A DNA stretch of 61,793 nucleotides, filler included, from Dugesia japonica (taxonomy: Eukaryota), in assembly GCA_001938525.1 (NCBI GenBank). It is 6 parts of 6 records of this genome, joined end to end, with 100 filler letters (N's around TTAATTAATTAA, not from the genome) between each part and the next. Parts side by side here need not be neighbours in the genome. Positions count along the whole stretch, not along the records: positions 48,837 to 61,793 come from MQRL01641042.1; 5 more parts are not named here. One strand, written 5' to 3'. The notes beneath the pieces are model-generated. The model made no database searches. It had not been told where the DNA came from and saw only the letters and a program-made list of their open reading frames with translations. Positions within the stretch are counted from its first letter, which is position 1. Each line of letters begins with the position of its first letter. The position numbers and the translations under genes were made by a program. Shown one piece after another: positions 13,121 to 61,500 of the stretch.

Positions 13121-14202
13121 ATTGGTCTGCCGTGCAATATGTGGTACGAAATATTTGTTTTCTGTTCAGCTTTAACTAATCCTACCCATTCTACTTTTAT
13201 ATATCACCCGCAAAATCTTCCCTCTTTAAGAATCTGTATAATTTTTCTGATACTTTTCCGATATTTTCCCATGTTTTGACCCTCTGAGGATAATCAATTA
13301 CTTTATTTAACAATAGACGGCTCCAACAAACTCCTCTACTAGTAGAGCCCTGCCTTTTGGNNACTGCCCCTCGGAATCACTTTCATATACTTCTTCATAT
13401 CCATCGTTTGTATTAACATATTCATCTTCAATCGCATGTACTCGATTATATTTTGCTTTAGTATCGCTTTAGTATTTGCTTTAGTATGACCAATCTTATG
13501 ACATAACCAACATTCTATATTTCTTTTTCTTTCTTTTATCCACATGTCTATTCACGGTATGATTTACAGGTTTCTGATAATTTTGACTTGTAACTGTCGC
13601 GTAATTTGTAACTGCATTAACTCGATCTCTGTTTTTTCTACTCGATCTACTAATGTCATTGTTTCTTCAATTTTTTCTATATTCTCTTGTTTTCGCAAAG
13701 TTACTTCTTCTTCAACTTTTTTGTTATCTGAACAATATACTNNNATCTTTGCTACCATTTTTTCCTTAGTAAAATCTTTATTTGTAAATAATCTTTTTAC
13801 TAAATCTTTTACATTTTTAAAATAAACCTGAATCTCTTCATTTATACGCCTGTAGTTAATCAAATTTTAAAAACCTTTGATAACATCTTTTTCTTTCTCA
13901 AATGACTTATGTAAACGAGCCTAAAAACCTTCATTGTTTTTCAACGTCTTTGCATATTCTTCCAACAAATCTTCATCTAGCAAACAAGAGACTAATCTCT
14001 CCTGTTGTTTCTCATGAGTGATGTTTTTAGCTTCAAAATACAATTCACATCGCTTGATGAATTTCTCAATATCATCTCCTCTGTAGACAATTTCCGGCAA
14101 TAACCTCTCTGAAATAGAATCGGTATTTACTTCTGCCACCATGTTAGGTAAATCTTCAATTGTTGATTCATTTTGCAAATCAAAACTAATATTTTGAGAC
14201 AT
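13121..14202 (-). pseudogene. Ty3/gypsy gag (with zinc knuckle) and start of the protease region
   Basis: DIEKFIKRCELYFEA (gag-like), a coiled coil, and ECWLCHKIGH (degenerate CCHC). CVGLVKAEQKTNISYHILHGRP is homologous to MIGIIKEKQNAEISYDKMQGRL upstream of the protease at 16394. Confidence 0.75.
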
Positions 14203-15954
14203 TATTTATTTTACTACTACAACTCTGTTATTTGGAAATAATTATTATTGAAAAGAACTGATTTAAACGTTTAGCCGAATTAACTCACTTTCTATTGGCT
14301 AAAAATATTAAATGATAATTATTTCCTTATAGTGAGTATGCTGGGTGAGGTAGACTGTCATCGCTTTACTGAATTAGCGTTTGTTAAGTAGATTCTGCAA
14401 CAATCCGTCCGAGTATTTTTATGGAGAAGTAGGGACTTCTTTATTTTGACAAGACCAGAAAGGTTCAGTTTCAGGCTTTGATTCATTCCTTTGATTTAAT
14501 TATAATATTTCTTTGCTGTAATGGCTTCACTAGTTTTCAAGAAGATGTAAGGATCAGTGTTGTAGAATAATAACTTTCCATTGAAGCAGCTCTAGCTTAG
14601 GAAAATGTTTAGGAACTTCATATTAATTAATCTTTAAGCAGAAAACTCAAGGGTTGCCGTACAGTATTCACTTTTCATTGCGCGTCACAATGGAATTAAG
14701 AAAAAATTAATGCAGACGATACCTTCAAAATACGATTTTTTTTTTAATTTCTGTCCATTCGTGAAGTAAGAAATTTGAGAAACTTACTTAATTTTCTAAT
14801 TTCTCACAAATGTTTAAAAAAAGTCCATGGGTAAAACGTTTTATTCAAAAGCAAGATTCCGAACAGTTGAATTCGGATCAATTTCTACTAACTTTTTCAA
14901 TTGATCATTGTCAATTGTAGGGTTCTGTCAAACATTCAGCTGTATATTTGCTTTTTGTCTCTTTACTTATTTATACGATTGATATTTCGAACGATTTGCT
15001 CAACTTCTATTACATTCTGTAAAGTTATAGCAAATTTATTCTTATTTCTTTATCCAGCGTAAAATTTAAATAATTTACTTAAATTTTAAATTTTTAAATT
15101 ANNNTAAATAAATTACTGTTTTCACATTCAATATTATAAATTCAAAATAAAATTAAAAATAATAAAATATTTCAATCAACGAAAAATGCATCTAAAACAA
15201 AATCTTTCGTTAAACAATCGAGTAATTAATTATATTAATTTACGGATGATGAAGCACTAATATGAATTAATTAATGCATTATCAGTTTATGCGCATTTAT
15301 GCATACAAAATACAATTTTTTATCAATTTATTATTATCAGTATTTAAATACATTAAATGAAAAAAATAATCAAACAAAACATTTGATACAAATTGAGTCT
15401 TATCAGATTTGCTTTGACTTTCTAGGTTTTCTTTTGAACTAATAAATATCTTTAAACTCCATTAAGATAATATTTATAAAATTTCTTGTTATAAAAATTT
15501 TTTCTTAAATATAAAGTCAACTTTTACATTATGAATACTAATTTACATTTTATTTTATAAGCAAATTGTCATTTTTAACAGAATTTTAGTTAATATTTGA
15601 ATTAATCATTTATTAATGGCGTATTTTTGTTTTAATCATTGAAATTAACTGATTTATTTTTCTACTGAAGTACATTTTGATTTGCTTTTTTTTAATTATT
15701 TTAAATTTAAAGCCATTTTAAAAGAAACTTTCAAACATTGTGATTTTTATTTAATCAACCGAAAAAAAACTTTAATCAAATTGATTTGAAATTATTTTTG
15801 TACATAATTATCATATTTGAAATCTAAATATTTTTTATTGATTATTTTGTTTTTTTTTAAATAGAACTAATTGTATCATTATAATTATTTTACTTTATTT
15901 ACTGTTNGAAATTCTTCATTATTATTTATTTCTTTGCAGAGAATTTGTGAAATA

Positions 15955-16070
15955 TTAGGTCGTCCCATATGAAATGGCAGTTTTTAAATTGTAACTAAAC
16001 GAAATCATAAAGAGCTCTTAAAAACATTTTATTCATCAAAGTATTTTCCAATAAACTTTTGCCATCGACT
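15955..16070. mobile_element. Mariner-like terminal fragment
   Basis: TA|TTAGGTCGTCCCATATGAAATG mariner-type terminus followed by short degenerate sequence. Confidence 0.35.
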
Positions 16071-16369
16071 TTNAGACAGCCAATTCTTCAGCTATTTATC
16101 GAATAGGCTTTTGCAGATTGGCTTCAACAGCTATTTTTAAATGATGGCAGTTTATATATTATACTCATGGCAGTATTTGGTCTTCCAAGGTCATCATTTT
16201 TCATGATGAGGCTACCTGCTTAAGCTTCGTTTATATATCTTTGTGTTGATCTTTCGCTTACAGTGCTATCATACCGTTCATAGTTAATATTGTTAGTTGC
16301 TTTCGATGCTTTAGTATAAATTCATAAAGCATGCAAACCCGAATATGTTGTTCAACCCTGTTCTAGTAA

Positions 16370-19346
16370 ATACGAAAAGCTAACAAAGCAGAAATGATAG
16401 GAATAATTAAAGAAAAACAGAATGCAGAAATTTCGTATGATAAAATGCAAGGGAGACTCAGCATTTCAGTGATGATCAAGGGTGAACAGTTTGATTGTTT
16501 GTTGGATACAGGAGTAAGAAGAAATGTGGTGAACTTGAAAGGACTTAATAGACTCGGAGAAACAATGGTAAAGAAAATCTAGGAACGATTGCATTGTGCA
16601 AAGAACAGCTCATTAGAGACGATTGGAAAGATACGTTTCGAAGTTATAGTTTCAGAGGTGAGCAAGGATACTAACATTTATAATAGTAGAAAAATTAATA
16701 CCAGATCTAATTGGTGGAGTGGAATTTCAGAATACTTTTGGGTATCATCTTCAGAAAACGTGAAGGGTAGACATCAATAACCATCGAGAAAAATTTGTTT
16801 GCAACATCAAGGCAAAATTTGGAAGACAAATACAGTCGGGTAAAAGATTGAGAGATGCCATAGAGATTCTGGGAATTAACAAAGATTATAGATTGATTGT
16901 GATTATTCAGAATAATGAGGAAGTATTTATGTCGGATTTATGGGACATTGGATGTACACACTTAACGAAGCATCAAATAATCACGAAAGGAGGTCCAATT
17001 AACATAAAACCGTATCGCCAACCAATGAATCTAGAGGAAAAGATTGAAGATGCCATCAAGAATCTATATGATAATGATATCATCTGAAGTGTAATTTGCA
17101 ATGGAATACGCCATTAATATGTGTTTGGAAAAAGGAAAAAAAGGAAATGCGATTATGCTTAGACTTTAGATAGCTCAATGCAATAACAGAAAGACAAGAT
17201 TTTCCTATGCCAAATGTGGACGACATGCTAGATGCTTTGGAAGGTACGCAGTAGTTTAGCTCAATAGACTTGGGAAATGCATACTACCAAGTGAATCTCA
17301 GTGGCGATTCTCAAGAAAAGACAACTTTTTCGACCAAACAAGGGCAATTTTGTTTCAATAGAATGTCTTTTGAAATTGCAGTTGCACCAGGTACGTTCCG
17401 GGAAATGATGAATAACGTAATCGGAAAAATAAAAGGAGCGATGGTTTATTTAGATAATATTCTCATATTTACCGAAACAAAAGAGCAACACTATGAAATA
17501 ACCAATAAATTATTCACAGAAATTAAGAAAGCTGGTCTTAGAGTTAATCTGGAGAAATTTCAATTCAGGCGAAAGGAGATCAAATCTTTGGGACACGTTA
17601 TCAGTAAAGAAGGTTTCAAAACAGATCCAACTAAAATAGAAGCAATTAAGAACTTCGGTAAACCAAACTGCGTTAAGAAAATGAGAAGCTTTTTGGGAAC
17701 TTGCAATTACTATCGAAAGTTTATTAAAGATTATTCAAAGAAAGCTAGATTACTGGAACAGCTGTGTAGTTGGCCAAGTAACAAGTAAATTGAATAGATA
17801 AATGAATTAGTAGAAATTTTTAATGGAATGAAGGAGGCACTAATGATGTATCTAATATTATGTTTTCCAGATATATAAAGAAGCTTTATTTTGGACACGG
17901 ATGCGAGTTTTGATACGATTNNNNNNNNNNNNNNNNNNNNNNNNNNNNNNNNNNNNNNNNAGTAATTGCATATGAATCACACGCAATGACGAGTCATAAG
18001 AAAGGATATTGTATTAAACTGAAAGAATTGCTCGCAATTTACTACTTTTGTATTTATTTCAAACATTATTTATATGGAAAGAGATTTATCCTCAGAACAG
18101 ATCATGAAGCCATCGCGTTTATGCTAAGTACCAAGAATCCGATTACATCACAGTTTCAAACCTGGATTAATTATTTGAGCAGTTTAGATATAAAATTGGA
18201 ATAAAGAAAATGATTACTTCATACAAATCCTGATATGTTGTCAAGGAATAAATGTGGTACATGTACGCAATATTTAATGTCACATGAGGATCCCAAAAGT
18301 GGAAAATTAAAAACAATGATGTTAAATACAGTAGATATTCAAGAAAAACAGTGCACTTTTTGTGAGAATGATGAATAAACATGGATACCTGATGATAAAG
18401 TAAAAGAGGTTATAATGAGGATACACCATCTTTTGCGTCATGCTGGAGCAGAAAAAGTAGCTGCGTATATGAAGCATAAATATAACGTGAAACATTTGTG
18501 TAGCAAAGTACAAGAGATTGTCCGAAGTTGTATAACATGTCAAAAAGCTAAAGTGTTGACAAAAAAAATGAAGGAAGAAACAAATAAGACGCAACCAGCC
18601 AAAATGTTTGAACTGTTATTTATAGATGTATATGAACCACTGCTGGAGACAAGAGGTCTAAAGAATTATATTCTAGGTATAATAAACCAATGCAGTAAGT
18701 ATGAAGCCTTGATAGCAATGACGAGACAAGATGAAGATACCATCCGGAAAGTAATATTTGAGAAGTGGATTTAAAGTTCGGGTGTCCGAGAGAAATTCGA
18801 ATTGATTGTGGAAGAGCATTTGAGTCCAAATAAATGAAATATTTTGCAACTGAACATGGCATTACCCTCAGGTTTTTGAGTCCATATCATTATAAAACAA
18901 ATGAGCAAATCGAGAGGCAATTTAGAACTATGCGGGATACGAATAATGCAACGCTTAAAGAAAAGATAACTTCAGATTGGGCAGATGTATTACTAGAGAT
19001 AGAATTTACCTTAAATGCTACAAAACAGAAAACTATCGGGGAAAACCAAGCTGAAATCGTATTTGGGAAGAGAATAAGCAGAGAAAAATAGTATGAAACC
19101 AATACTCTAAGAGGGCACAAAGAACAAGAAGAATAAATATTGACCAAAAGACAATTCGAGATCGGTGATGAGGTCTTAGTGAAAGCTGAAACAAGAAACA
19201 AGAGCCAAGATCGTTATGAAGGACATTATAAGATCAAGTGGAAGATTCATGGCAGACTTTACATTCTGGAAGATACAAACGGGAAAAGACTTAAAAGAAA
19301 CGTGGAGAAGATCAAAATATTTCTTAAAAAGGGGGATAAAAGATAG
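16370..19346 (+). pseudogene. Ty3/gypsy pol (protease, RT, RNase H, integrase), multiply disrupted
   Basis: LLDTG (PR); PINIKPYR, RLCLDFR, AYYQV, MVYLDNILIF (RT); ILDTDAS, KELLAI, LRTDH (RH); H..HAG..C..C, SPYH..NEQIER, GDEVLVK (IN). The domain order is gypsy. Confidence 0.93.
19326..19336 (+). promoter_or_regulatory. Polypurine tract of the gypsy element; degenerate 3' LTR probably follows
   Basis: AAAAAGGGGGA at the end of the integrase. Confidence 0.6.
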
Positions 19347-21469: not shown

Positions 21470-21569
21470 NNNNNNNNNNNNNNNNNNNNNNNNNNNNNNN
21501 NNNNNNNNNNNNNTTAATTAATTAANNNNNNNNNNNNNNNNNNNNNNNNNNNNNNNNNNNNNNNNNNNN
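21470..21569. other. Artificial contig linker
   Basis: N44-TTAATTAATTAA-N44. Confidence 0.97.
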
Positions 21570-23942: not shown

Positions 23943-24900
23943 ATGTCAAAATTATCAAATAACCAAAAAATACTCCGAGATCAAGCCGGACGGCTAAGAA
24001 ATAAATTATGTGCCGGAAAACCTGCGAAAGAAGAAAGCTTAAAGAAAATCCCATGCAACAAAACTCAAAATGAATGGGCATCCACAATTCGAAAAGCCCA
24101 AAAATGGAAGTTGGAAGCAATGACGCTAAAATTGAGCAACCAACTACTGAACCACATTATAAACGAACAAACAAACCAGATAGAAGATGAGAAATCAAAG
24201 CAAAGAAGCGCTAAAGTTGCAGTGTCTTGTCTAAGAAGAAAGGTTGACGAATTACGATACGTCAGACACGCCAACAGAAATATCATAAAAGAGACCCAGC
24301 ATTGGAAACAGATGGCGATGCTCCGGGGTTACAACAAAAACAAAGTTGTAACTATCGATAAAAGGAAGAATAAAATAGAGGATCTCGAGGCAAAGCTACA
24401 AGCTGCACAAGAAAAATTAAGCAGATTAAAATCGAATGCAGATACGTTAAAAAAATGCAAAAAACCGAATATCAGAAATATGGTCGGAAATGAATATGCA
24501 AAGCATGTTGATAGCGGCCAATAAGGACAATAATAGATTAGATGCCACACTAGCCAGGCAAATCATGCAGCGAGCCACTACAAATTTAAAAAAGTATATT
24601 GTAGCAAACAAAGAATAGGAGGTCGCCAAAGAATGGAATGAAAAGAAGGAAAAAATGATTGAAAGCCTACGAACCAAAGTGAAGGAGCTTGCCGACAAGG
24701 AAGTAAAGTTAAAAGCTGATTATGAGCAGCAGTTAGAAAAGAAAGAAGAAGAGATACGATATCTGGAATATCTTCACGATACCATTTATAATACAATGGC
24801 AAATCAGAAGCTGCTTAAAAAAGACAATCGAACCAACGGACATGCCACTATCCAACAATCCTTACAAGAGACTTTTATCGAACAGTGTGATCATCATTGA
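23943..24900 (+). pseudogene. Basic coiled-coil orphan protein of about 318 aa, with one frameshift and one stop
   Basis: tcatttAG|ATG start. Removing one A from the A7 run at 24449-24455 joins ORF 23943 to ORF 24655, with a single internal TAG. Heptads IEDLEAKLQAAQEKLSRLK and IESLRTKVKELADKEVKLK. AATAAA lies at 24905. Confidence 0.6.
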
Positions 24901-40094: not shown

Positions 40095-40194
40095 NNNNNN
40101 NNNNNNNNNNNNNNNNNNNNNNNNNNNNNNNNNNNNNNTTAATTAATTAANNNNNNNNNNNNNNNNNNNNNNNNNNNNNNNNNNNNNNNNNNNN
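40095..40194. other. Artificial contig linker
   Basis: N44-TTAATTAATTAA-N44. Confidence 0.97.
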
Positions 40195-42576: not shown

Positions 42577-44075
42577 CAGTGATTCTCAAGGTGGGCCTAA
42601 GAAAAATTTAAATTGGCCTGAAAATATAGGTGGGCTCAAATTTAATCTATTTAATTTAATTTAATCTATTCATATTGATACTAATTTTACTTTAAAATTT
42701 TAATTATTATAATTATTGAAAATCACATTAATATTTGTTCATGTTTTTTTCTGTGAAGTGTAGAAATGTAGTTTGTTCCTAATGTTTTTCATGGAATATG
42801 ATGTTTTCCTGGTAAAATATTATGTTTCTGTTGAAAGTGTTTGAAGATTTCACTTTCTTTCTGTTTGAGATGTGTGTTTGAGTTTTGATTTTTTTATTAT
42901 ATTTTGCATGATTTGGCTACATTTCTTATTAATAAAAGGTAATTTAATTATTGTGTTTGTCTTTTGTTGGATTTTATTAAATTTTGTATTCGAGGATAAG
43001 TACTTTGATACAATTCTATTTTGATAACCATAATTTAGAAATTTATTTTTTTATCAACCTGAAGGAAGTCAATCTCATTTCTACATTTGAAGATAGTCTT
43101 CCAGCTCTTATTCTTTCACCCTCGATTATTCCAATTTTCTGCCTGATGGTAGTATTACTACTCCAGAGTAATATATGTCCACTGTGAAATAATTTCATGT
43201 ATAACTGGGTATTAATCATTCACCAGGTTTCTTTTGGATAAAGGTGTCCAGAAAAGGAATTTGAAAGTCGATTGACTTCTATTAAGTGAATTTGAGGTTA
43301 TCATTAATCCTATTGGCTAGTTCCAAAGTATTTTCTAAACTAAAATTAGTAACAAAGAAAATATCATCTATATATTTGTATCCTCTTCTTAGCTTTGAGA
43401 ATAATTTTATGTTCAATGTAGTTCATAAAAACTATCGCTAAAATAGGATACAAATTGTTACCGATTGCCAAACCACTTTTTTGTTTAAAAAGTTGTTCAC
43501 AGATAAAAATGCTGTCAGAGAACAGACACAAATTGATCAGAGATTGGAAATCATTTTTAATGATTTCTGGAATATCTGTATGTTCTTTATAACTTTCAAA
43601 AAAATCACTTATAATATCAATGAAATTTTCAAGTTCTTCAATGGAAACTAATCCATAAAGATTTGTTACATCCAATGAGCCAAATCAATCATCGTTCTGC
43701 TAGTCTTAATTTTTAATTCGTTCAACAAACTCGTAACTATTTTTCAAATGTGCGGGAATAAAACTTAAGTGGTCTCAAAATTTTTTATCGAAGCCTTTTC
43801 TTTATTTTAATGAAATCTAACGGTTTAAATTTTATATACTTATATTTAACTATGTTTTTCACATTTTAAACATAAAAACGTCTTTTTGTAATATCTTAGA
43901 ACTTATTTCAGTAGTGTAACTCAATCTTGATAGATAAACCAATTTTTTAAAGTATTATTATTCACCAAATGAATAAAGTTTATTTTTAGTTTTGACTTTT
44001 AGGACCTATGTGGCGCTGGAATTCTTTAAGCGTTGAGAAGTTGATTGCAGAGGAAAAAAAGGTTGAGAAACATTG
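42577..44075. mobile_element. Non-autonomous hAT element hosting a Penelope fragment
   Basis: Termini CAGTGATTCTCAA / TTGAGAAACATTG; 8-bp flanks CACTAAAC / CACCAAAC (TSD with one mismatch). Confidence 0.7.
42720..43775 (-). mobile_element. Penelope-like RT fragment
   Basis: SLDVTNLY, FKQKSGLAIGNNLYPILA, IDDIFF, IPFLDT. Clearly homologous to 60640-61450. Confidence 0.85.
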
Positions 44076-44123
44076 CACCAAACATTCACACAGATTAAAC
44101 TATTTAACCGATACACACATAAA

Positions 44124-44548
44124 ACCTAATAATACTAGGTTGGGTACACCCGATCTCGGAAGTTAAGGTATCCTAGGCCTCCTTAGTACTTATAACGTTA
44201 GCCGTGTCAACTGAACCTGACCGGTGTTTGACTAATGAGAACCTTACACATTTTCAGTGCAAAATGAAGTCCACCATTTCGTAGTTGATGTCTCGGTTGT
44301 TCAAAGTGATTTCGGTTAAGTTCTTTCAAATTCTCTTAGAAGTCTCTGTCTTAGAAGAGTTTTATCATTAGATTGTCAAAAGGACACTCAAAATCAGCTG
44401 GTAGATTCCGATCCCTTCTAGCTGATATCCTTGTGACATCCAATCTACGACGCTCATTCAATTGGGTCTTCAGTCTGCAAATGGATGTGTTTATCTCGGC
44501 GTATCAATACCTGTAGCTCCGTTAAACTTAATAAACACAATAAACCAA
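44124..44548 (+). mobile_element. 5S rRNA-derived SINE (SINE3-like), near full length
   Basis: Head ATACTAGGTTGGGTACACCCGATCTCGGAAGTTAAG..TAGGCC..TTAGTACTT follows the 5S rRNA 5' two-thirds, with one GATCTC unit collapsed. It has a non-5S body, an A-rich end and flanking direct repeats ATACACACATAAA (44111-44123, 44549-44561). Confidence 0.8.
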
Positions 44549-48668: not shown

Positions 48669-48736
<68 letters not shown>

Positions 48737-48836
48737 NNNNNNNNNNNNNNNNNNNNNNNNNNNNNNNNNNNNNNNNNNNNTTAATTAATTAANNNNNNNN
48801 NNNNNNNNNNNNNNNNNNNNNNNNNNNNNNNNNNNN
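48737..48836. other. Artificial contig linker
   Basis: N44-TTAATTAATTAA-N44. Confidence 0.97.
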
Positions 48837-49228
48837 TTAGCCCCTGCCAGGGAGTTACGCACACTCCATAAATTGTTTTGGACAAAAGATGATAGGTGCT
48901 CGTAGGAGGGCAGTTGGGTGGTGGCGAATCCGAACACCGTGGGACTCTCTGACCACACACGCTCAACTCGTGGTATCGACGAAGAAACCGTAGTTGATTG
49001 CGGCGAAGGAGGATAATAGGGACGATCCTGCAGTGGACCGCGCCATTGATAGTAAGCCTCTCTCTCTTCGGCGTCCCAATTCCTATACTCTTCCGCTAAC
49101 TGTGGTGGCATATTGTAATTGTCAACCAGGACACCCGCGCTACGGTTATGTGAGTTTCGGTATTTGCGGAACGTCGACAACCCCGTTTGAATGTCCGTAG
49201 TGATTGTCCAGATATGCTCCATTATCAT
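48837..49228 (-). CDS. Orphan small protein C (63-aa shared domain + S/P-rich tail), runs to the contig edge
   Basis: Intact GC-richer ORF; tcttttgtAG|ttttATG; gapless homology to ORF 49396-49740. Confidence 0.75.
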
Positions 49229-49395
49229 AAAACTACAAAAGAGTTATGTTTTATTGTCTGTTAATAGAAATAAGTAAAATAATAGAACAATTATAAAACC
49301 AAAATTAAGAATTTCTAACGAAAAGCTAACAAAACACAGAATTTATTGGCTCTTTTTTAATACAACCACGATACCCATATTAATGAAAGAAGAGT

Positions 49396-49740
49396 TTAAC
49401 TATCTTCTCTCTCAATGCGGAAATGGGTACATTGCGACAATTGTCCGGGGGTAAGCGGAATCCATGCTGACCCCTCTCGCCATTGTAGGTGAACGTGATT
49501 AGTGATTGGGTCAACCGTCAAGACGCGGTGCAGGACTTCGCGTGATCGGTCGGGACCATTCCACTCATAATAGGCGTGACGCGCGATGGATGCTTGCTCT
49601 CGTTCCTGTTCGGATTCTCCGGGTGTTAGTACCGAAAAATCAACAGAGTCACCCGCATTGGGGTCATACGGATTGCGGTATCGTTTTACGACGATTTCTC
49701 CAGTGTACCGGTCCTGCAAAATCTCCCACTTGTATTCCAT
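49396..49740 (-). CDS. Orphan small protein B (114 aa; 63-aa shared domain + distinct tail)
   Basis: Intact ORF; CACTAAT branch-like motif, then tgttaAG|ttgATG; AATAAA at 49347-49342 followed by TCTGTGTTTTGTT; paralogue of ORF C. Confidence 0.75.
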   Translation of the reverse strand: MEYKWEILQDRYTGEIVVKRYRNPYDPNAGDSVDFSVLTPGESEQEREQASIARHAYYEWNGPDRSREVLHRVLTVDPITNHVHLQWREGSAWIPLTPGQLSQCTHFRIEREDS

Positions 49741-49855
49741 CAACTTAACAGTGCAGCAAAACATTAGTGATTATAATAAGAAAGCAAAGAAGAAAATTAT
49801 TAAAGTAAGTATTTTATTTATCATGAATAATAGAAATTGTTAAACCAAGATATAA

Positions 49856-50038
49856 TTAATCGGCATCCAAGTCTACCGGCACATCTAGCGGGAACATCTC
49901 GGCGAAGCATTGGAGGTCCGTCTCGTCCGGATGCTCTACAATCCCTTTGGTTAGATAATGCGCCACTAATTGTTTAGCTCGGACAGCTTGGCGCTGTTTT
50001 TTGATCCAGCGCAACATGTTACGGAGTTTGGCCGTCAT
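49856..50038 (-). CDS. Orphan small protein A (60 aa; basic N-half, acidic C-half)
   Basis: tatttttgtttcAG|ttgATG; MTAKLRNMLRWIKKQRQAVRAKQLVAHYLTKGIVEHPDETDLQCFAEMFPLDVPVDLDAD*; AATAAA at 49818-49813. Confidence 0.6.
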   Translation of the reverse strand: MTAKLRNMLRWIKKQRQAVRAKQLVAHYLTKGIVEHPDETDLQCFAEMFPLDVPVDLDAD

Positions 50039-52988
50039 CAACTGAAACAAAAATATAATGCCGGATTTATAGTTATGACTTAGAGAACCATCACACAACA
50101 GATAAGGGTCTGGTCTGGGAATTAGGAGTTATCTGTTGACAGACAGGCGGGGTAGTCATCGGTCAAAGAACCCGGCGACCCCTTGTTATTGGTCGGTTAG
50201 TAATATATTACTGGCTAGAACCAAGTCGTCGATCGATTTGACTCGGGAGCTCTTGGGATCTATTTTGTAATTAAACGAGAAATCGATACACGCATGCCAG
50301 GTCCGGATAATCGTAAACGTCATTATATATATACTGAGCCTTATTAACTGGTATGGCCAAGTTTATAATGGAGATCGGAAACGCATGGGGGTTTATCCAC
50401 TTTTTCGGAATACTAAATATTATCACGTCTAGAATAATAATGCTAATACTTATCATTCGGTCAATAGCCAAGCCAGGTTCGATGTGCTGGAAGCAGGCGT
50501 AATTATCGTCATGAGAAAATTGAAACCATTACCGCCTATAATAAGGCTAATATTAAGATTACTAGAAACAATGATAAGTAAGTTAGTACTAGATCGTGAA
50601 TCAACCACTTTATAATAGTGAGAAGAGTAGGACAATTAATAATAACTTGATTGATGTGGAATTCACGGTTACCACTCGACCTAGCAGTGAGAGAAGCTTC
50701 GTCGAAAAATCCTCTCTATTTCCCATAATATTTTGGTATAAAATTTTAATAACTCCGCTTCTTATCCACATAAATATTTCACTTCCAATAACGCGGCCGC
50801 ATCAATTAGTTAAATTAGTTATTCCTTATTTTAATATATAAGATTACGCATGGCCGTTATTTTAATTATAATTGTTGCTAATTAATGGGAATGTTAACAC
50901 CGATTTTACTGATTTAAAAATTACGCCTGTCGCTATAGGGATTATCCAAGGTCGTTTCCAGCTCACTGTGTGTATGCGCGTGATGTGTGTTGAGTTATTT
51001 GTCTTGTATACTGCGATCGTTAGTAGCATCGTAATTAGTCATGAGACATTGCTATAACACACGGTGAGTGTTGTCAGATAGATGCATTTAGTCTAGTTTA
51101 TGGCATGCTGAGGCTTTTTGTCAACGAATTTATCTCCAAGTGGAGTTAGTTTTTTCTCAGCTTTCATTATTACTGAACTAATGGTATTCGTAGGTCAGAA
51201 TAGTGATTTGCATCCACAGTGGATTTTAGTGTTAGCTCCTGATCGCTGCATCTCGGTTGTTTATCAACGCATAGGAATCTAATTGAAAATTCATCGCTCG
51301 CTGAACAACTATCTGTAGACTACTGCAAGGACAAATCACTTAATATCAGAGCTTAAAAGTTGATTCTGGAATTATAATATTTTATACTGACAACCGTAAT
51401 GAAATTTGGTTCTATTCTCGTGCGATAGATTTTAGATGTGATGCTTGGTCTTGTTAATTCCCGATGATGGAGTTTTTGGGATAGAATCGAGCCGATTAAC
51501 AGATAGATATTTATGTATGCTATAATGACGGATCAAGTGTGTTTTGTCGACTTATGATTTTTCCTCACGTAATGGTTATGCTGGAAATATATATTTTTTT
51601 TTAATTCTGGTTTCGGGGTAATTTTACTTTATTAATCAAATTTTTAGTTTATTTTTGAATCATTGATTTTAGTTAAGTAAAAATAAAGGAAAATATTCCC
51701 CTCGTACTCTCGTAGAAATCTTAATATAATAATCGCATTTTAGAATCCTCTCTTTTGTCTTCTGTCTAAAGTAAAACTAAAATTGAATTGGTAGACAAAA
51801 AATAGCTAAGTTTCCTGAGAGTCCGATTGGTACGTTCGATTATTTTCCTTATCGGAACATTAGAGTGATTATATTTAAAAAGGGGTAGCTCGTAGATTAT
51901 GATTATTCATTTTTATTTTATATAACATTATTAATTCAAATTACCAAACTCATTTTTATATAACCATTTATTAAAATTATTTCATAACAATAATAAAATT
52001 ACCAAAGCAAAAATTACTTATTTATAATCCTGGCGAAATCAACAATGAAAGTTAGACTCGTTCTGCAACGGTACGTAATGGGGGTCCTAGGTTTATCCGA
52101 AAAGCTTGATTGATAATCCAAATTCTGCGATGGCGTAATATGGCTATTCTTCTTCTAGAATAATTTTGATAGGAATCAGTTTATTATATCCCGACTCTTA
52201 CCGGTAGATTTTCCTTTCTTTTCTTTTTCACCAAATATGACTCAAGTAATTCGATAATGCCTTTTTAGGATTCGTGACCGATAGTTTTCTTATAATAAGA
52301 GTTTTCGTATCGGTTTCAAATTTTTGCGTATAATTCTACGACTTAGTAAATGAATAAAATGTGTGGTATTTTCATCTAAGATTGAAGGTCCTTTTATAGG
52401 ATTTTGTGTACACCACTACTGGTTCTTAGATTTGCCAGTATTNNNNNNNNNNNNNNNNNNNNNNNNNNNNNNNNNNNNNNNNNNNNNNNNNNNNNNNNNN
52501 NNNNNNNNNNNNNNNNNNNNNNNNNNNNNNNNNNNNNNNNNNNNNNNNNNNNNNNNNNNNNNNNNNNNNNNNNNNNNNNNNNNNNNNNNNNNNNNNNNNN
52601 NNNNNNNNNNNNNNNNNNNNNNNNNNNNNNNNTTCTGGAAGGTGGTATGTTTTTTCTTTGTAGGGTCCTAGTTGCACCGATGGATTCTCTTTCGGATTTT
52701 TCTTGTTTGATCGTTTTCTGACCACCAGGATTGGAGTTATTGGCCAGAAACATATTTTTTACCCATTTTCGTTTATTTTTGTTTTCAAATTAATTAATTT
52801 GTTGGTATTAATTAATTATTTTTTGTATTATTTTTTCTGGTTATTTCTTTTTGATTTAATAATTTCCTTTAATTATTGAGCATAATAACTTCCATTTTCT
52901 TTCCATACCTTTTTTTTTATTTTTCTTTTATTGTGGTATTTTGTGCTTCATCTTCTTCCTGGTTTATTAGGGGGTGTTTCACCCCAAC

Positions 52989-52989
<1 letters not shown>

Positions 52990-53040
<51 letters not shown>

Positions 53041-53090
53041 NNNNNNNNNNNNNNNNNNNNNNNNNNNNNNNNNNNNNNNNNNNNNNNNNN

Positions 53091-53158
<68 letters not shown>
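52990..53158. repeat. (AAT)n microsatellite (others at about 1588-1624, 4661-4726, 20287-20397, 48670-48736)
   Basis: Seen directly; most abut N gaps. Confidence 0.95.
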
Positions 53159-55133: not shown

Positions 55134-55480
55134 TTAGTACTTATAACATGAGCAGTGTCAACTGAGCCTAGTTGGCGTTTGGTTAGAGATAATCCTACAA
55201 ATTTTTAGTGCAAAAAGGAGTCCATCACCTCTTATTTGATTGTTCATGTGTTTTGGTGTTTTCAGTTAAGTCATTTAAAATTCTTTTAGAATTATCTGCC
55301 TTTGAAGAGTTTTCATCGTTAGGTGGTCAAAAAGACACTCAAAATCAGCTTACAGATTCTGAATTTCAACTAGCTGAAATCGTGGTGACTTCCGATTTAC
55401 GGTTCCCAGTAATGGGATTTTCAGTCTGGAAAATGGTTTTTTTAATCGCAGCATATTAATACGTGTAGTTCCATTATTAA
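55134..55480 (+). mobile_element. Second, 5'-truncated copy of the 5S-derived SINE
   Basis: Colinear with 44182-44525: TTAGTACTTATAAC, GTGTCAACTGA, AGTGCAAAA, GAAGAGTTTT, GACACTCAAAATCAGCT, CTAGCTGA, TTCAGTCTG, TGTAG. Confidence 0.8.
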
Positions 55481-59739: not shown

Positions 59740-61500
59740 GATCAATGGTTACGTCCAACAATTATTCTCGCAATAATTGCAATTGTAAAACAATTATGGC
59801 TGTCGCCATCAACCGTGGACATTTTGATTTATTCAATGGTATAAAAATTTTCAAAATTCAAAATCACATTAAATTCTTAAGTGAATGTAAAAGAAGGAAA
59901 TTAATACCTTTTGGTTTGAGAATTCAAAACCAACTTGATAACACCTTTAATTGTCGCCAATTCTAATAATTGTCCTAATCACGTTTTCAGTTGTTGACTT
60001 TTCTTCGAAAAAAACTTTTTAGTGAAATTAATTATCTGCTAAAAAAATAAACCTCTATCTTTTCCTCTTAATAAATTAGATCAAGAAACGTTTAACAAAT
60101 ATAAAGAAATAAGGTCTCGTAATATTCAAAATGAAATAAGAATTCTACTTACTAAAAAATCTAAAACTGAAGACAATCAAAATCAAAATAAATTCAAATC
60201 AAAGTTTTTGGACAACTGTTCTTCCTTTCAAAAATCTTACTGAACATACATTCACCGACAAACAAATAAATTTACTTAACAAAGGTCCGAGCTACATCCC
60301 GGCCAATTCAAACGTTTCTGAATCATCAAATATTGCAATGATTAAACCTTCATTTACAGATTAAAATGTTAATCAAATAAATTAGAAAATACATCAAATG
60401 AAACATTTAATGATTCCCAAATTTTTTTCATCGAAATGGAATTATACACAAGCACTCAGACGCACTATACAAACTAAAAATTCTCCTATTATAAAAGATG
60501 ATAACAACATTAAGGATCTTAAATTTAAACTATTACAAACATATAAACACAACAAGGATAATAATTTAAAAAGTAATGAAAATCAAATTATCAAAGAAAA
60601 TAAAAATTTAAAATCAATTCATTTAAAATAAAAGCTTCGATCATGAACTTCATTGAAAATGAAATAATTCTTAAATTAAACAAGAAAATTCATCTATGGT
60701 TTAGATACATAGATGATATTTTCTTTGTAACTAAATTTTCTTTAGAGAACATTTTAGAATTAGCCAATAGTATAAATGATAAAATTAAATTCCCTTTAGA
60801 GAAATCAATTGACTTCCAGATTCGTTTTCTGGACACTTTAATCCAAAATAAACCTGGTGAAATATTAACTACCCAATTATATATGAAACCATTTCACAGT
60901 GGACATGCTAGTATATTATCTTAGAGTAGTAATACTACTACCAGCCAGAAAATTGGTATAATTAAAGGTGAAAGAATTCGAGCTGAGAGACTATCTTCAA
61001 ATGAAGAAATGAAATTGATTTCTCTCAAGTTGATAAAAAATAAATTAAAAAATAATGGCTGCTAAATAAAATTATATCAAAAAATTTATCTTTAAATACA
61101 AAACAAAATAAAATCAAACCAAAAATCAACACAGTTATTAAATTACAGAAACCAAGACAAAACTTTTGTGGTCCCAAATTCATTTGTGATGATAGAAATA
61201 TATGTAATAAGAAAATTGTCACCTATAAAATAACACACACCGTTTGTCAAGAAACATATATACGTGAAACATCCAGAACCATCCGAACAAGAATTAAGGA
61301 ATATCTGAAACAAGAAGAAATTGAAGTCTTCAAACACTTTCAACACAAACATAAAATTTCACCAGAACAACATCATATAACATGGAAAACAATAGGAACA
61401 GGCTACATTTCTAAACTACATAGAAAAAAAACATGAAGAAATACTAATCAAAGAAAACAATCCNAAAATAAATACAATATCGAAATATCGAATTGTTATC
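59740..61500 (+). mobile_element. Penelope-like element with an internal deletion of most of the RT
   Basis: N-terminal HIKFLSECKRRKLIPFGLRI and LLNKGPSY; WFRYIDDIFF, FLDTL, LYMKPFHSG; GIY-YIG-like VTYKITHTVCQETYIRETSRTIRTRIKE. Confidence 0.85.

Follow-up and report, generated by a model that had tools for sequence, protein, structure and literature searches.

The stretch of DNA analysed here (the window, 61,793 nt from Dugesia japonica) contains, at the left edge of the contig 48837-52442 (GC 0.37), a cassette in which three small genes lie in a row on the minus strand; the GC content of the window is mostly 0.19-0.33. ORF A (49396-49740) encodes 114 aa and ORF B (48837-49222) at least 128 aa, and the first 63 residues of each, encoded by 49740-49552 and 49222-49034, respectively, constitute a shared domain. 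ORF B is open into the adjoining gap and, since no stop codon is reached before position 48836, it is incomplete. The co-oriented upstream neighbour of the pair is ORF C (49856-50038, minus strand, 60 aa from its ATG), a third cassette gene that is unrelated to A and B and matches no known family. It lies beyond the coordinates considered in the sequence-only reading that preceded this work, which had placed both domain peptides correctly. Two ATG frames of at least 114 aa arise in 1 of 500 local shuffles.

The base composition of the cassette genes is foreign to their surroundings. ORFs A, B and C have a GC content of 0.51-0.52 and a GC3 of 0.50-0.59 (0.51 and 0.50 for ORF A), compared with a GC3 of 0.19-0.36 in three host-like exons and of 0.11-0.37 in 15 other coding pieces of the window. 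The Gypsy pieces within the window, with a GC3 of 0.24-0.36, are also unlike the cassette.

The genes are separated by short AT-rich spacers, the signals of which are predictions only. The spacer between C and A (49741-49855, minus strand, 115 bases, GC 0.22) carries AATAAA at 49818-49813, a TATA-like box at about 49775, a T-rich tract and an AG 3 bases before the ATG of A. In the spacer between A and B (49223-49395, minus strand, 173 bases, GC 0.24), where insertions and deletions among the copies cluster, AATAAA at 49347-49342 is followed by a T-rich tract and an AG 10 bases before the ATG of B. Just 5' of the ATG of C (50039-50071, minus strand), a TATA box at 50071 is followed 28 bases on by TCAGTT, which is initiator-like or splice-acceptor-like. 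All three start codons are located at an AT-to-GC boundary after a T-rich tract, with AG-to-ATG distances of 3, 3 and 10 bases. In front of C and A, but not of B, a TATA box is followed at 28-30 bases by an initiator-like motif, a combination reached in 7 (C) and 74 (A) of 5000 shuffles; the AATAAA motifs of the two spacers are within chance (9% and 15% of shuffles). As the TATA, initiator and AG patterns were chosen after the sequence had been seen, they serve as leads only, and the same bases before the start codons would fit splice acceptors as well as initiators. A single gene with three exons spliced together was considered and is less likely, because each ORF has its own stop codon and homology starts exactly at the methionine in three proteins; the differing AG-to-ATG distances disfavour it as well.

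The remainder of the window is of mixed origin. Its six parts meet in joins of 100 bases (12942-13041, 21470-21569, 30994-31093, 40095-40194 and 48737-48836), each with a 12-base linker providing stops in all frames, and the order across these five joins is therefore no evidence of linkage. At 664-5321 lie the exons of a host gene with a FERM domain (FERM_C, E 4e-7), after which come repetitive and proline-rich exons. A decayed Polinton/Maverick lies on the minus strand at 9000-12941, with integrase-like and packaging-ATPase-like frames recognized by eye, the ATPase piece having no Pfam match, and a broken protein-primed polymerase B (PF03175, E 2e-8) together with a C2H2 zinc-finger frame at 26844-30261 represents a second Polinton remnant. 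Gypsy remnants are found at 13042-19213, where the minus strand carries gag-like frames (13400-14205) and the plus strand pieces of reverse transcriptase and integrase; the contig from 13043 begins with TGTTG, the same pattern as at the candidate terminus described below. Two broken mariner/Tc1 transposases are present at 33709-36773. Penelope-like reverse transcriptase and endonuclease were recognized by eye at 42727-44524, 55134-55476 and 60604-61448 in copies that are 75-85% identical and have no Pfam match. Frames of 193 aa and 93 aa at 23943-24900 are coiled-coil-like, match no family and are probably a transposon remnant.

The duplicated domain and its relatives

The two 63-residue domains align without gaps, and our recount gave exactly the 24 identical positions reported earlier. 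BLASTP of ORF A against ORF B found 25 of 67 residues identical (E 3e-12), and the local score of the domain pair was 118, compared with a maximum of 57 among 5000 shuffles. Identity by codon position 1, 2 and 3 amounts to 29, 39 and 22 of 63, respectively, and when 67 codons were bootstrapped 20000 times, position 2 failed to exceed position 3 in no more than 0.02% of the replicates. Together with a saturated pS of 0.76 and a pN of 0.45, these values indicate that the duplication is old and that the protein has been conserved. W, Y, R, G and P are the conserved residues of the module, in which neither a catalytic set nor a membrane segment was seen; by sequence analysis the ORF proteins are hydrophilic and carry no membrane segment or cysteine pattern. 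A two-domain profile detected no third copy of the domain elsewhere in the 61,793-nt window.

The tails that follow the domain behave differently. Their score of 22 was equalled by 1941 of 5000 shuffles, and a comparison restricted to the vicinity of the diagonal gave a p value of 0.07. With scores near the shuffle level the tails of A and B count as unrelated, as had been stated before, with a faint hint of likeness. Good cover by contigs from other copies, at an identity of at least 80%, extends over the tail of ORF B, and each tail thus looks like a retained part of its own gene. Of the proposal of a constant N-terminal domain with a variable tail, the fixed module and the differing tails are borne out by three proteins, but among the copies the tails do not look hypervariable.

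The third of these proteins comes from outside the window. The profile search that had been suggested was carried out as a full scan of 1.84 billion representative proteins and returned three matches. P0001 (94 aa, E 2e-16), a singleton encoded on a 512-base ENA metagenome contig, is the sole outside member of the domain family. Its first residue is the same methionine and it aligns without gaps, with 25 of 63 identities to A and 27 of 63 to B (about 40% with either) and 17 invariant columns, and it continues into a tail of its own that is weakly like that of B (150 of 3000 shuffles). Homology from the methionine onwards combined with a separate tail fixes the limits of the domain independently. 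The other two matches, P0002 and P0003 (E 4e-5 and 1e-4), come from bacteria and are long repeat proteins in which the score accumulates over five repeats; they were discarded as noise.

Further searches yielded no relatives. A word-indexed protein search with ORF A gave 5 candidates, none at E 0.001, and the same kind of search with the alignment of A and B gave 89 candidates of near length and 1360 longer ones, none at E 0.1. Exact look-up of five ORF forms found no match, and no relative was found among 2.9 million viral contigs or among metagenome contigs, prokaryote genomes, phages and plasmids. In the Atlas, ORF A had a best value of 0.79 with an unnamed entry and P0001 had no usable match. 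That the family was not recognized at first reading is in keeping with the library searches, in which a refuting Pfam or viral match was looked for and not found: best E values were 0.13-0.15 in Pfam, 0.14 in PHROGs and 0.67 for PDB profiles, and NCBIfam returned nothing, so that neither a family, at the curated cut-offs, nor a solved structure is matched. Transposon proteins from animals without annotation are scarce in these libraries, and absence from them is weak evidence of rarity.

Structure prediction was uninformative for the domain (pLDDT 38-57 with an alignment of two rows) and gives no support to the folded protein proposed at first reading. The pLDDT was 52 for ORF A folded with the two-row alignment and 45 for ORF B folded by itself, and the shared domain differs between the two models. 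The proposed fold check was nonetheless run with the low-confidence model of A; at E 0.001 Foldseek gave no match in the PDB or among viral models, and the best Z in VIA was 3.6. At this model quality the outcome of the fold search is evidence neither for a new fold nor for disorder. The tail of ORF A, which we take to resemble a chromodomain, had no Pfam match to Chromo or Chromo_shadow at E 1, and the best fold Z was again 3.6 with the low-confidence model.

Copies, selection and expression

Contigs assembled from four sequencing runs align on 48837-50320 (1.5 kb) in large numbers, namely 2714, 2104, 2080 and 796, and most are 80-95% alike; at one site, in ORF C, up to 94 contigs differ. Thousands of diverged contigs over this stretch make the cassette part of a large, diverged repeat family, and the suggestion that a repeated element carries the genes agrees with these counts. 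Read roughly from the contig numbers, the copy number is in the hundreds to thousands. The summed contig depth of 4000-41000 over the ORFs and of 40-70 at 50087-50320 (X1) is a rough hint; it does not amount to a copy number and gives no ranking of the gene parts. Contigs of other copies extend about 190-200 bases past 48851, so the repeat family continues into the gap. A 586-base contig that occurs in three runs at a depth of 7-12 is identical to the window over 50053-50320; it supports the assembly there, and one of those runs may be the source of the window.

Differences between copies preserve the reading frames. Among the ORF differences listed, 16 of 28 are synonymous and 12 are not, none creates a stop codon, and 28% would be expected to be synonymous (p 0.001); as the variant tables comprise the 40 best-supported rows each, with 237 and 369 more, this count comes from a biased sample and is no dN/dS. 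Coding sequence makes up 76% of the part compared and holds 1 of the 12 insertion or deletion rows listed (13 more rows exist). Purifying selection on ORFs A, B and C is supported by these sequence comparisons, and the selection on the protein that had been claimed from the domain pair is thereby backed by the codon-position bias (0.02% in the bootstrap) as well as by the synonymous excess among copies.

Little RNA was detected. In three raw RNA runs, of which 25%, 25% and 6% were sampled, 7, 3 and 0 reads fell on the segment, all of them partial and less than 95% alike, and the run that gave none has no weight as a test. The reads lie on ORF C, where they are few and stem from a divergent copy, and on 51620-52103; in the three sampled runs no read fell on ORF A or B and no splice joint was seen. 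A contig set that we guess to be RNA covers A and B, and it may contain DNA.

Purifying selection would also be expected if A, B and C were a host multigene family or operon, for example one resolved by spliced-leader trans-splicing, that had been expanded by segmental duplication, and the operon-like order of stop codon, AATAAA, about 70-115 bases, T-tract with AG, and ATG fits such an arrangement. A host origin is nevertheless very improbable in our view, given a codon composition unlike that of the host-like exons, thousands of divergent contigs, almost no poly(A) RNA and no annotated relative in any proteome searched. Over all readings, the cassette is very probably cargo of some mobile element.

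The upstream stretch and a candidate element end

Upstream of ORF C follows a non-coding stretch (50072-52345) that is near-unique from about 50087 to 51250 and shared with some copies from 51257 onwards. Contig cover over the segment starts at a high level on the ORFs, drops almost to zero at 50289-51256, is moderate up to 52345 and reaches its maximum at 52346-52442. This best-covered block contains, on the minus strand, a TATA box at 52398 that is directed towards the ORFs, and a donor-like site is predicted on the same strand at 52204. A plus-strand AATAAA lies at 52353, at the edge of the block.

A candidate end of the element is located at 52971-52989 on the minus strand, about 3 kb upstream of the cassette and after a sized gap. 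It consists of TGTTG followed by a 6-bp G+C hairpin and adjoins a (TAA)n microsatellite (52989-53158, with an internal gap) as the right flank. The sequence matches TGTNR, the pattern described for Gypsy LTRs and for Ginger ends (PMC2836005). A further (TAA)n microsatellite at 48669-48736, left of the linker gap, is possibly the left flank and lies on the other side of the join. The hairpin is not significant (z -1.2), and TGTTG at 52989 may be a variant of the microsatellite, since CAACA also precedes the left one. The window contains no LTR pair and no repeat of the candidate end, and the segment has no long inverted repeat or TIR, no Rfam family or tRNA and no convincing primer-binding site or polypurine tract. 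Gag, pol, integrase and transposase are absent from 48837-52989 (4.1 kb), and the left end falls in the gap. Matches of the 19-base end motif in two metagenome contigs showed no further likeness and were put down to chance.

The hairpin that is directly followed by (TAA)n, together with the AATAAA that borders the best-covered block on the plus strand (52353), would suit a plus-strand element carrying the ORFs as antisense cargo in a long 3' region. Such an element could be a Retand-like one with LTRs, or a non-LTR or Penelope-type one that terminates in a stem-loop with a (TAA)n tail. Poly(A) signals private to the ORFs would in that case spare the genome RNA of the opposite strand, and antisense ORFs between pol and the 3' LTR are known (PMC11963269). 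On the other hand, the best-covered block has a canonical minus-strand TATA box, cover does not climb steadily to the right end and the hairpin does not rise above chance. We consider an antisense arrangement improbable.

The position of the candidate end beside a microsatellite also bears on an origin from an endogenous DNA virus or a giant DNA transposon with a Ginger-type integrase that inserts into microsatellites and of which we would see the end, with compact early genes, each equipped with a TATA-initiator and a poly(A) site. The lack of introns in the GC-rich genes, the shortness of the AT-rich spacers and the TATA box with initiator-like motif before C and A agree with this idea. In endogenous nimaviruses with a Ginger2-like integrase, the ends start with GTTG, insertion is into (AT)n and 22-477 copies occur per genome (PMC10871703). 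These nimaviruses and Ginger elements share with the present locus a TGTTG-type end beside an AT-rich microsatellite, a multicopy state and many ORFs of unrecognized kind (PMC10871703; PMC2836005), but the locus differs in that no inverted repeat, integrase or nimavirus gene is seen and the target is (TAA)n and not (AT)n. Furthermore, no viral gene, core genes included, was recognized among the three ORFs, no relative was found in the 2.9 million viral contigs, the TATA-initiator pattern is missing before B, and a gene-free variable stretch of 2.3 kb is unlike a compact virus genome. A viral or giant DNA transposon origin is unlikely, although not negligibly so.

Polintons carry small ORFs of unassigned kind, and their ends have short AG/AGT repeats. 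The presence of Polinton pieces at about 9000-12941 and 26844-30261 raises the question of whether the cassette is part of a Polinton/Maverick like these decayed ones. The pieces are on other contigs, at least 18 kb off in window coordinates, their GC3 is 0.11-0.21 as against 0.50-0.59 in the cassette, and the candidate end is devoid of AG/AGT repeats. Membership in a Polinton strikes us as very improbable.

A proposed large Gypsy-type carrier and a possible role of the small genes

We give an even chance to the explanation that A, B and C are small, intact, selected genes of a high-copy repeat, that they lie in an accessory region near the end of a large Gypsy-type element, i.e. one with a retroviral integrase, and that their soluble products are regulators helping the element to be expressed in its host. 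Planarians, with an AT-rich invertebrate genome, are described as having giant Gypsy elements that carry accessory ORFs and number in the thousands (PMC6431247; PMC11410931; PMC8532177). The extra ORFs of LTR elements are usually expressed from spliced messages (PMC5408684), one such extra protein exports element RNA (PMC10309623), and antisense ORFs between pol and the 3' LTR exist (PMC11963269).

In a Gypsy-type element of this kind, A and B would have arisen by an old tandem duplication of the whole gene unit, after which the two acquired different tails. Each ORF may be translated from a separate short message. Such a message could begin with a leader initiated at the conserved TATA box at about 52398 and joined, through the predicted donor at 52204, to an acceptor before the start codon, or it could be initiated at a TATA-initiator belonging to the ORF itself. 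The 63-residue module would then serve as a binding domain, with the tails determining the partner. By analogy with accessory proteins of LTR elements, the foremost candidate for the job of these proteins may be countering host silencing or handling element RNA, an assignment that, taken by itself, we hold only tentatively. The earlier suggestion of an anti-silencing or host-interaction effector gained no support from the fold searches. A more far-reaching version, in which an undescribed giant element between transposon and virus targets microsatellites, has reached hundreds or thousands of copies in an animal genome and carries an array of small genes and a modular counter-silencing domain with exchangeable tails, appears to us rather improbable.

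The closest parallels differ from the cassette in what they encode. The giant Gypsy elements Burro/GYPSM1 of planarians share with it an AT-rich invertebrate genome, very many copies, accessory ORFs and a proposed regulatory cargo, but their cargo of BIR, BCL2, MATH, ankyrin and RING domains has Pfam matches (PMC6431247); ORFs A, B and C have none above cut-off, hence none of these five domains is recognized in the visible ORFs, and the present locus shows no gag-pol. Published primers for BURRO1, GLT2 and Gypsy8, a single one per element, found no match in the window, a comparison that tests little. The extra ORF3s of bdelloid LTR elements, CERV of Cer1 and the antisense ORFs of Retand are likewise small accessory proteins with separate messages, some of which regulate element RNA (PMC5408684; PMC10309623; PMC11963269). 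In comparison with these, the cassette has no family match and consists of three short genes in a row, two of which are old paralogues.

Accessory genes on mobile elements are known as such, and it is the domain family that is undescribed in the libraries searched. The literature covered by our check contained no description of the domain motifs or of such a cassette. The element may already be catalogued in Repbase, and if it is present in a repeat library the novelty reduces to the domain family and the layout of the cassette. For animals, very little is known about regulators and counter-silencing proteins encoded by transposons. A new small domain that is selected, duplicated and multicopy is a direct candidate for such a transposon-encoded regulator, and it provides a probe for a large, abundant element that fragmented assemblies have missed.
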